In this document: piece by piece, positions 1-21,509 of the stretch
Position numbering within the stretch: the first letter of the stretch is position 1
How the letters are laid out: each line of letters begins with the position of its first letter
NCBI RefSeq assembly: GCF_964213995.1
Contig: NC_135808.1
Coordinates: 7,130,001 to 7,194,000, forward strand
Reading direction: 5' to 3'
From: Mustelus asterias
Lineage: Eukaryota
DNA: 64,000 nt
Position numbers and translations under genes: made by a program
Notes under the pieces: model-generated
What the model was told of the DNA's origin: nothing
What the model saw: only the letters and a program-made list of their open reading frames with translations
Database searches by the model: none

Positions 1-559
1 CGTGTCGACACTATATTAAGAAAGCCCACCAATGCCTCCACTTTCTCAGAAGACTAAGGAAATTTGATATGTCCACTATGACTCTCACCAGCTTTTACAG
101 ATGCACCATAGAAAGCATCCTTTCTGGTAGTATCACAGCTTGGTATGGCTCCTGCTCTGCCCAAGACCGCAAAAAACTACAAAGGGTCATGAACGAAGCC
201 CTGTCCATCATGCAAATCAGTCTCCCACCCATTCTCACTGTCTACACTTCCCGCTGCCTCGGAAGAGCAGCCAGCATAATCAAGGACCGCATGTACCCTG
301 GACATACTCTTACCTTCTTCCGTCAGGGAAAAAGATACAAAAGTCTGAGGACACGTACCAACTGACTCAAGAATAGCTTCTTTCCTGTTTCCATCAGACA
401 TTAAGTTAATCTTTCTCGACACCCTAGTTATGACTGTAACACTACATTCTGCACTCTCTCCTTTCCTTATCTATGAACGGTATACTTTGTATAGCACACA
501 AGAAACCATACTTTTCACTGTATACCAATACATGTGACAAGAATAAATCAAATCAAATC
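1..559 (+). mobile_element. Rex1/Babar-type LINE 3' end
   Basis: FYRCTIESILSGSITAWYGSCS C-terminal peptide; AATAAA followed by a (TCAAA)n tail. Confidence 0.8.
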
Positions 560-919
560 CGAGCAGAAGAGGACATTCGGTCTATAGAGTGTGCACTGAC
601 TCTCTGACAGAGTATCTCACCCAGGCCGTCTTCCCTACTCCCCCTCTCTATCCCTGGAACCTTACAACTTTATCATGGTTAATCCCCCTCATTTACACAT
701 CTTGGGATACCAGAGAGCAATTTAGCATAGCCAATCCACCTAACCTGCACATCTTTGGACAATGCAACTCTACACCGTAGGCAGATCATAATCTGTGGCA
801 AAATGCAGCAAATCAAGTCGGATTTAAAATAAATAAATATTTGCATGTTTTTTTTAGTGCCTTCCACCACCGCTGAATTTTGAAGAGATTCTTGTAATCT
901 GAGGAAACGTTCTGGCTAT

Positions 920-1749
920 TTAAAAAAAAATTATGTCTAATCAAAGTCTAGACCAGCGAGACATTACAGATACAAGCTGACAAGACTGGCTGCCCTCTTC
1001 CTGTCTTGGGTTCGATCATAAGACCATAAGACCATAAGACATAGGAGCGGAAGTAAGGCCATTCGGCCCATCGAGTCCACTCCACCATTCAATCATGGTT
1101 GATTTCAACTCCATTTACCCGCTCTCTCCCCATAGCCCTTAATTCCTCGAGAAATCAAGAATTTATCAATTTCTGTCTTGAAGACGCTCAACGTCTCGGC
1201 CTCCACAGCCCTCTGTGGCAATGAATTCCACAGACCCACCACTCTCTGGCTGAAGAAATTTCTCCTCATCTCTGTTCTAAAGTGACTCCCTTTTATTCTA
1301 AGGCTGTGCCCCCGCGTCCTAGTCTCCCCTGTTAATGGAAACAACTTCCCTACGTCCATCCTATCTAAGCCGTTCATTATCTTGTAAGTTTCTATCAGAT
1401 CTCCCCTCAACCTCCTAAACTCCAATGAATATAATACCACGATCTTCAGACGTTCATCGTATGTCAGGCCTACCATTCCTGGGATCATCCGTGTGAATCT
1501 CCGCTGGACCCGCTCCAGTGCCAGTATGTCCTTCCTGAGGTGTGGGGCCCAAAATTGCTCATAATCCAAGCTGATCAGAGCAGGCATTACACCTCCTCCA
1601 AGGCTTGGTCTCATTTGCATCTTAGCCAAAAGGGCTAGATGCCGTTTTAAAAAATTGCTTCAAATGAAGCCTTTGTGTAACCTCATTGACTTCTATCAAG
1701 TGCAGGATAGCAAAACTACTCTTGATCTTAGCCAAAGGCTGAGAAACAT
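920..1749 (-). mobile_element. Element with two U2 snRNA 5'-derived segments, interrupted by a CR1 insertion
   Basis: 1749-1715 matches U2 nt 1-37; 1644-1619 is a second U2-like segment; TCAGCTTG motif occurs on both sides of the CR1. Confidence 0.65.
1017..1560 (-). mobile_element. CR1 LINE 3' fragment
   Basis: QFWAPHLRKD..LERVQRRFTRMIPG..FFSQRVV..WNSLP peptide; (CATAAGAC)n tail. Confidence 0.9.
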
Positions 1750-1980
1750 TCTGGCTAATTTGTGCTGAATCATGCCCGAGGGACAGCAATGTAAATTGAG
1801 GGATGAATGTGGAGCTGCAATCTGAGAGAATCAGTGTAATAGTGGCTAGGGGGTGTGTGTGTTTTGCACCCATCTTGAGGGGTCAGACTGAGTCTCGGTT
1901 TAATGTTTCCTTCAGACAGCAGCATCTATGACAGTGCAGCGCTCCCTCAAGACTGGGTTCGCCCACATTCCAAACTTCGA

Positions 1981-19715: not shown

Positions 19716-21509
19716 TTACATCATGCAATGCCAAAAAACTTCAGTAATTTTTCCAACTGCGATGCGGTTCGATGTTTTAAAAATAACTGGGCTTGAATAT
19801 TGCACAGGTATCACCGAACATGTTGAGGGAGATGCACACCGTGGGTCGAAACTCATCGTATGTTTGTCAATAAGACTTTGCAAAGGGTCGGGACTCGGGT
19901 GCGAAAACAGACCGGATTAGGTTGATTGGCCATGGTAAATTAGCCCATGGTGTCGGGGAAGGGCGGGGTGGGGCGAGAGGGTAAATATATGGGGTTATGG
20001 GGATAGGGCCTGGGTGGGATTGTGGTCGGTGCAGACTCGATGGGCCGAATGGCCTCCTTCTGCACTGCAGGAATTCTATGAAACCTGGAACTCCCAACCT
20101 GTGGAACCGGGCTAAGCAATATTGCACACAGCTAGCTCGCAGTTAATGAATGGGTACTCGACTTCCAAACCACGCCACCCAAACCTCCCCCCTCCCCCTC
20201 AGGCCATTTAGCACCAGGGTGGTTCCCTGCTGGGTAAAACCAAGGGAGGAGATCAAAAGGGAACCATTAAAGTACTGGAAATGAACCTTAAAAGTTGTAC
20301 AATGGAACAGTAAAAGTGCATCGTTAACAGATTCACAAAGCGAGGTGAATGTTGATAACATATAGGAACCCTACAGTACAGAAGGAGGCCATTCGGCCCA
20401 TTGAGTCTGCACCAACAACAATCCTACCCAGGCCCTATCCCCATAATCCCATGTATTTACCCTGTTAATCCCCCTGACGCAATTTAGCATGGCCAATCCA
20501 CCTAACCCGCACATCTTTCGGACCGTGGGAGGAAACCGGAGCACCCGGAGGAAACCCATGCAGACACGGAGAACGTGCAAACTCCACACAGACAGTGACC
20601 CAAGCCAGGAATTGAACCCAGGTCTCTAGCGCTGTGAGGCAGTAGTGCTAACCAGTGTGCCAATGTGCCGCCATACAAACGCACAAAATTAAGTTGTTTT
20701 TGCATATCCGACATCCTAGGTTAGGAACTTGGTAAACAATGCTAATTAGTGGCAAGATTTTAAATATTAGATGAGGGAATAAGAGAAGTTTAACGATTCG
20801 GAGACAGTGCTCCTGGGGTTCTATGGATGCACTGATAATGTCACTTTGACTGTCAATCCAGAGGTGCAGACGAATAAGATCCAGGCGAATTTATTAGGAA
20901 CACAATCCCACCACATCTGGTAGAATGCAAATTCGATTTTGAAAACACCTGTTAAAAAAATGAATGCAAGTTTTAGTAATGGTCACCATGACAGCTGTCT
21001 CACTCACTTTAGGAGAAGGGAATCTGGTGTACGTGCCAATCCAGACACACAGCAAAATGGTTGAATCTCACCTGCCCTAGGAAATGGCCTTGCAAACCAT
21101 TCACTGAGTAATAGAGCATAATAGAGATTCCTCCACCCACCGTGTCTGCGCCACCCATCAAGCACCTATCTGGGTGCTGGGCATGGTAGCACAATGGTTA
21201 GCACTGCTGCCTCACAGCTCCAGGGACCCGGGTTCAATTCCCGGCTTGATTCACTGTCTGTGTGAAGTTTGCACGTTCTCCCCATGTTTGCGTGGGTTTC
21301 CTCCGGGTGTTCAGGTTTCCTCCCACACTCCAAAGATGTGCGGGTTAGGTTGATTGACCATGATGAATTGCCCATAGTATCCCGGGATGTGTGGGTTAGA
21401 GAGTTAAGTGGGGTAAATGTGTGAGGTTGTGGGGATAGGGCCTGTTGTTGGTGCAGACTGAATGGGCCGAATGTCCTCCTTCTGCACTGTAGAGTTTCTA
21501 TGTTTCTAT

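Follow-up and report, generated by a model that had tools for sequence, protein, structure and literature searches.

What kind of element begins with a piece of U2 snRNA, and how might it be transcribed, as SINEs normally have an internal Pol III promoter in the head and snRNA heads have none? The question is raised by a sequence in Mustelus asterias, on the minus strand at 1745-922 of the stretch of 64,000 nucleotides that was analysed (the window), where it is cut in two by a CR1-like fragment. Our answer, to which we give a probability of about 0.65, is that it belongs to a family likely transcribed from U2 promoters, by way of copies residing in U2 genes, and likely moved by a Keno-like Tx1 LINE.

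Structure of the window copy

The preliminary description of this DNA had reported two U2-like segments, a repeated TCAGCTTG motif and a continuation beyond an insertion, and inspection of the minus strand found all of them present (Table 1). The 5′ and 3′ window parts form one element, because at all 29 other loci examined the 5′ part continues straight into the sequence found from window position 1016 onward (two of these loci, L013 and L024, break again shortly after the join). Rfam gave a U2 match at 1551-1750 (minus strand; 34.3 bits, E 2.6e-4), which falls under the gathering score. The head had been described as U2 nt 1-37; it does run to nt 37, but it starts at nt 6, because the first bases (1749-1746) belong to the target duplication and lie outside it. 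Compared with the U2 gene of this genome (L031), it differs at three positions. At the other end, the tail of the window copy is a run of T, and most other copies have a run of A. The T run in 1643..1670 resembles, by eye, an Sm site without its closing G, and would also stop Pol III.

The CR1-like insertion has its tandem tail at 1017-1040; no duplication surrounds it, 2-3 target bases are gone at the junction, and its open frame gave no Pfam match. Two fragments of another interspersed repeat, about 85% alike, flank the element at window positions 16-402 and 2581-2970.

Table 1. Features of the window copy, from its 5′ to its 3′ end (window coordinates)
Feature	Position	Strand	Basis or remark
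Upstream copy of the target-site duplication (TSD), 18 bp	1743..1760	-	16/18 alike to 904-921; last 3 bases overlap the head (microhomology)
U2 snRNA-derived head, U2 nt 6-37, slight 5′ truncation	1715..1745	-	Sequence, Rfam, comparison with L031
Arm that complements the head; fold-back over the head is predicted	1671..1714	-	Shuffle test and folds
Small hairpin and internal T run	1643..1670	-	Sequence, folds
Second U2-derived segment, U2 nt 4-27, closed hairpin	1619..1642	-	Repeat comparison, folds
Hairpin module 2, duplicate of module 3	1560..1612	-	0/1000 shuffles
Later insertion, 5′-truncated CR1-like LINE 3′ end	1017..1560	-	152-codon open frame, 8-base tandem tail
Hairpin module 3 and 3′ region	933..1016	-	Homologous to the post-head part of family C
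A/T tail (T run in this copy)	922..932	-	Sequence, other copies
Downstream copy of the TSD	904..921	-	Repeat comparison

A dispersed family

Relatives of the window copy are numerous and make up a dispersed retroposon family with a unit of about 310 nt and an A tail. A query with the 5′ part gave 1,333 first-look candidates and one with the 3′ part 727 (40 scored in each case); two further family queries gave 1,747 and 1,621. The expectation of many dispersed copies with TSDs was thus borne out, by more than 1,300 candidate relatives and by the 18-bp TSD of the window copy, and the sequence is not single-copy, since its structure is shared at the 29 other loci. An ordinary, lone U2 pseudogene fragment with chance neighbours, which the Rfam score below the cut-off might have suggested, can be given next to no weight when so many candidate relatives repeat the same structure, which is not collinear with U2, and have TSDs; single or independent U2-collinear copies are not what was found. 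Being multi-copy and TSD-flanked, this is a U2-headed, non-autonomous retroelement of the SINEU kind, as had been proposed.

Among A-type copies (A being the subfamily of the window copy and B its sister), 21 of 49 have TSDs of at least 8 bp, as do 22 of 40 of the B type; mismatched flank pairs gave 6 of 177. For this comparison 140 of 179 rows were kept, duplicates and copies without a located tail end being left out (7 of 186 copies had been left out already), and a few of the TSD calls include head sequence of a tandem neighbour; a looser test had a high control rate (19/87), and the stricter version was used instead. Subfamily A has a mean identity of 93.8% to its consensus (24 near-best copies), which the 5′ part of the window copy matches at 175/189 positions. 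The mean for subfamily B is 98.5%, a value biased upward because it was computed from the 29 best matches. Fifty-five stretches of 10 kb taken at round coordinates held no A or B copy and one partial C-type copy (of a sister family, described below), and therefore A and B together are capped near 20,000 (rule of three); the floor from candidate counts is near 1,700. The 135,653 first-look candidates for the Rfam U2 model were rejected as a copy number, the 55-stretch sample being nearly empty. Several family copies do exceed the Rfam U2 cut-off, and in such genomes they swamp the annotation of U2.

Fourteen sequencing runs, none listed as RNA, contained at least 0.29 of the words of a three-copy stretch; they came from six studies and six organism labels, of which A may be the present host. 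The headless body matched organism D on 1,756 contigs, and organisms G, H and I on 51-67 contigs each, and it was present in contigs of three runs guessed to be RNA, where start, strand and level are unreadable.

Some targets have been used repeatedly. Three distinct copies (L008, L017, L060) lie at the same position of one repeat, and elsewhere different subfamilies and LINE pieces lie one behind another in a single target site, with further copies of the duplication separating them (L022, L023, L057, L173, L177, L224, L229, L230, L233, L238, L240). Of 40 B copies, 11 have another U2 head within 60 bases downstream.

Head, body and tail derive from U2

The heads match U2 nt 12-37 at 25.6 of 26 positions (n=101), and the inner U2 modules are diverged. 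The fixed junction at U2 nt 37 that had been foreseen is found in the window's own subfamily, where U2 identity ends at that base in 22 of 28 readable copies; in B it ends at nt 39-40 (57/73 copies). With a headless query, 35 of 36 B copies began at or before U2 nt 15, and in 18 the start lay at nt 1-3.

The element had been thought dimeric, with U2 borrowed as its 5′ end alone. Neither view survives shuffle tests of the body and tail, which on alignment are also diverged U2 sequence, making the whole a multimer of U2-derived units. The connection runs through sister family C, which consists of U2 nt 1-33, a short inserted arm and then sequence like nt 40-169 of U2A, one of the genome's two U2 types (0/1000 shuffles for the alignment after the arm). 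Module 3 and the tail of subfamily A align with family C at 0/1000 shuffles, so that 933..1016 reaches U2 nt 40 to about 105 by this route; compared with U2A directly, the same part of A is weakly alike (7/1000 shuffles), as is that of B (42/1000). The 3′ arm of module 2, which holds TCAGCTTG, resembles U2 nt 40-55 (6/1000 shuffles against U2 38-65). Because of these alignments between modules, family C and U2A, we read the repeated motif as diverged U2 nt ~48-58 and the element as a stack of U2 units. Two further proposals for the segment between the head and the second U2 piece, as the U2 3′ half (nt 38-191; 528/1000 shuffles) and as an Sm site (483/1000), had no support.

Family C is itself numerous (2,985 candidates). 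It is a remodelled, near-full-length U2 of about 220 nt that has acquired an arm at the Keno site and ends in an A tail (L297-L315; L023 2139-2375; L125 3820-4051; L262 2267-2482).

Positions 45-70 of the subfamily A consensus, in the arm, match the reverse complement of U2 1-38 (3/1000 shuffles); for subfamily B the match to antisense U2 is marginal (53/1000). Single-sequence folds pair the arm over the branch-point recognition bases of U2, most of which it is predicted to cover in the window copy. In the consensus fold the partner of head nt 7-27 is the second U2 segment and not the arm.

Could the sources be stand-alone variant snRNA genes, having their own promoter and a cellular role, with the dispersed copies as retro-pseudogenes? 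Strong predicted folds (z -9.6 for L228 and -4.0 for the 5′ part of the window copy) and the collinearity of family C with U2 to nt 169 would fit such genes. However, there are many subfamilies, and among 45 copies the stems persist while the hairpin tips are highly variable and fast-changing; strong covariation was absent from these copies, where a two-sided change was seen in 1 of 57 predicted pairs, changes being otherwise one-sided. Moreover, behind every promoter-linked copy seen (discussed below) come an A tract and U2 sequence from nt 39 onward, as an insertion would leave them, and we regard this reading as very improbable.

U2 genes and a Keno-like LINE

U2A genes form arrays on C24, and U2B genes (167/191 alike to U2A, Rfam 175.5 bits) a cluster on C21. 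An upstream motif at about -62 to -42 is common to U2A and U2B (14/21 alike, in a comparison without a null), and it looks like a PSE.

Both clusters hold a LINE with a ZCCHC3-type/CCHC ORF1, APE, RT and zf-RVT, and its tails are followed in both by U2 nt 38/39-191. Over the RT region it is 46% alike to a zebrafish protein named Tx1 149 kDa, the one protein so named among the 120 matches listed, none of which was named Keno. U2 nt 38/39 is the insertion site given for Keno and Utopia in the parts consulted of PMC4640811 and PMC6136364. Utopia has a restriction-like endonuclease and does not fit the present LINE. Keno, as the portions consulted of those papers and of PMC4494074 describe it, is matched in all of the features compared: an APE endonuclease with RT, a CCHC ORF1, and insertion before U2 nt 39. 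The LINE itself starts with U2 1-33/35, which in the C21 cluster is joined without a gap to the U2B spacer before it. The stretches read contained no intact ORF2, the lone open frame of 1,134 codons being without a YxDD motif.

Some details of the clusters deserve mention. At C21:28.045-28.082 Mb (L246-L250), U2B is arranged in short units of 448 bp, with Keno-like LINEs in both orientations. At C24:44.81-44.94 Mb (L073) a unit of 8,035 bp, comprising one intact U2 gene and a U2 fragment that a frameshifted Keno-like copy interrupts, is repeated about 15 times: a dead LINE insertion has been amplified with the array. Several U2A array genes (L119-L122), at 207 nt and with about 88% likeness, exceed the normal length by about 16 bases and have their upstream DNA intact.

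Family members in U2 genes

Members of the family are found in the same position as the LINE. At L123 a single U2A gene holds a SINE, a truncated LINE and a second SINE, each followed by U2 39-onward sequence: the order is upstream DNA, U2 1-40, SINE body, tail and a decayed U2 39-onward repeat, then the truncated LINE, U2 39-52, the second SINE and U2 39-191. The copy at L123 5550 is preceded by 250 bp that are 98.8% alike to the upstream DNA of the array. In the C21 cluster, a B copy (L161) lies between U2B spacer and U2B 39-191, and full-length LINE copies likewise stand behind U2B spacer there. These two family members are thus fused seamlessly behind U2 upstream DNA. With a targeted query, A-type copies at 3 of 30 loci (L266, L268, L269) ran directly into U2 39-onward sequence.

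How general is the connection with Keno? In sets gathered without a U2-flank query, a Keno-like 3′ flank was found for none of 49 A copies and 1 of 40 B copies, and because of this rate of 1/89 the link rests on a minority of copies from targeted queries; an earlier, high rate, from which a general preference for the Keno site had been entertained, reflected the query used, which itself included that site. Thus the suggestion of a U2-targeting LINE as partner holds in that a Keno-like LINE shares the U2 site, but not as a rule for the unbiased copies. The further suggestion that the 3′ end would be shared with a Tx1/Keno LINE failed: 443 of 1000 shuffles scored as well against the LINE 3′ UTR, and the matches between family and LINE are the U2-derived ones and a 13-base word, nothing else.

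It may be, then, that with the same element and the same source at U2 promoters, most dispersed copies were moved by some other LINE, whether an L1 or a Tx1 of lower specificity, with the Keno-like element making the U2-site insertions only. The 3′ flanks of 88 of the 89 unbiased copies are unlike the start of the Keno site, other repeated targets exist (the shared site of L008, L017 and L060; L057), and a second, more distant Tx1 subfamily is present in the U2 clusters (L075, L134). Against this, dispersed 3′ ends of the Keno-like LINE adjoin family copies (L057, L049, L067, L231, L160, L164), so this LINE, too, inserts outside U2 genes. We consider another mover unlikely, though a serious competitor to the Keno-like LINE.

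U2-array DNA also travels with the SINE. Of nine composite units of this sort that were tested, six are flanked by a duplication of 14-20 bp (a count without a null control), and at L174 the SINE, U2A 39-191 and U2A 3′ flank lie within one TSD. The exceptions are L198, where the duplication is only 9 bp, L195, which has none, and L194, with an 11-bp duplication seen by eye only, the script having matched the repeated LINE tail. The composites are best read as reverse-transcribed read-through RNA from SINE-holding U2 loci.

In the model developed for SINEU by Kojima (2015), heads are acquired by template switching onto U2 snRNA, transcription depends on flanking promoters and copies in U2 genes would be dead ends. 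Extra U2 fragments upstream of some copies (L178, L209, L240) suit that model, as do the different junction lengths of the subfamilies (nt 37 versus nt 39-40) and the fact that no current promoter-linked source was found. Within subfamilies, however, the junction is fixed and is followed by an arm complementary to the head, and dispersed units carry U2 spacer of the non-transcribed type and 3′ flank DNA within one TSD. Template switching onto mature U2 is insufficient, because such DNA is beyond what it could supply, and we think it quite unlikely as the origin of the present heads.

The youngest burst did not come from the promoter-linked copies: L123a, which carries a deletion, matches the B consensus at 267/283, L161 matches it at 310/318, and the copy that matches at 298/300 is 5′-truncated and 3.3 kb from the promoter. 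No promoter-linked subfamily A copy was seen in the stretches read, and a query joining U2A promoter, head and body gave one fusion among the 40 best matches. In the parts of the arrays that were read, in an assembly that may be incomplete, no current source copy was found.

A possible cycle

How might transcription from U2 promoters work? On insertion at U2 nt 38/39, the head of the element would pair with, or be replaced by, the gene's own nt 1-38, leaving promoter, fresh U2 head and body in line, from which we propose a Pol II start at U2 +1. The LINE reverse transcriptase would prime at the internal A tract, and occasional priming further downstream would give 3′ transductions. Most insertions would fall on targets selected with little specificity, and the rare hits on U2 genes would renew the source and its head. 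The fold-back arm might hide the U2 branch-point bases, so that the RNA would neither function as U2 nor poison it.

The fullest form of this proposal is a self-renewing parasite of U2 genes, with the head as a homology arm, rare Keno insertions creating Pol II sources and the arm concealing splicing-active bases, and with U2 having been remodelled into several retroposon families (a near-full-length form, multimers and U1-U2 hybrids). Taken together, these claims stand in our estimation at about even odds. If they are true, the transcription of snRNA-headed SINEs would have its first direct explanation, and the class would have arisen a second time, independently, in a lineage of several related species where it was active until recently. 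An essential splicing RNA has here been turned wholesale into a mobile element.

Relationship to other elements

R2 offers a parallel, as another promoter-less element relying on the transcription of a multicopy target gene, although R2 is autonomous and stays in its target, whereas the present family is non-autonomous and mostly dispersed. R2 is co-transcribed with 28S rRNA genes (discussion of PMC4494074, as far as consulted).

The closest relatives in kind are the SINEU elements, reported in crocodilians only, where they target Mariner-N4 and are moved by Tx1-Mar (Kojima, 2015; PMC4494074, in the parts consulted). As described there for SINEU-1, -2 and -3, the copies here are less than 500 nt long, dispersed and of one structure, with a U2-derived head, several U2 segments, internal oligo-T runs, an A tail and TSDs; they occur in tandem copies that sandwich a TSD, and SINEU-3 is likewise a rearranged U2. 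In neither case is there a LINE-derived tail (judged here against the 3′ UTR of the Keno-like LINE, the LINE compared), and in both the Tx1 partner, here a candidate, itself has U1/U2 heads; Tx1 may be the mover here, its U2 site being shared by some copies, though by 1/89 of the unbiased ones. Unlike SINEU, as far as that source was consulted, the present family has members that occupy the Keno site of U2 genes and stand behind U2 upstream DNA, transductions of U2-array sequence, a 98.5%-alike subfamily and fold-back hairpin modules. The origin is likely independent of crocodilian SINEU, the crocodilian families having been compared by published description only. The transcription of SINEU is left as an open question in the consulted part of PMC4494074; the present family speaks to it, and the question is now directly testable, because promoter-linked loci, transductions, a young subfamily and a candidate LINE are all to hand.

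Keno itself uses the same site as some of the SINE copies, and the SINE is non-coding. Nor does the family look like a non-autonomous Keno derivative with 5′ and 3′ ends taken from the LINE, as the likeness is in U2 sequence only. SacSINE1 and the CmiSINEs are also short non-autonomous retroposons of cartilaginous fishes, but differ from the present family in having tRNA heads, Deu/CORE bodies and L2 tails (PMC5499810, in part); a word search of the consulted text found no snRNA, SINEU or Tx1. No U2-headed SINE of cartilaginous fishes appeared in the literature searched, which included the consulted portions of PMC8010984, PMC5499810, PMC5381603 and PMC7245038. On the best reading, the family is a SINEU-type element in a new form, which may already be catalogued in Repbase or Dfam.

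Finally, we draw attention to sequences resembling U1 at several of these loci. Rfam gave no U1 match for them. In a variant of the SINE, such sequence is joined to a U2 head (L023, about 1800-2130; L270, 3′ flank), and it also forms the 5′ end of a Tx1 copy with an internal deletion (L075 3640-3720; L134). These U1-U2 joins resemble crocodilian SINEU-1 and Tx1-Mar.
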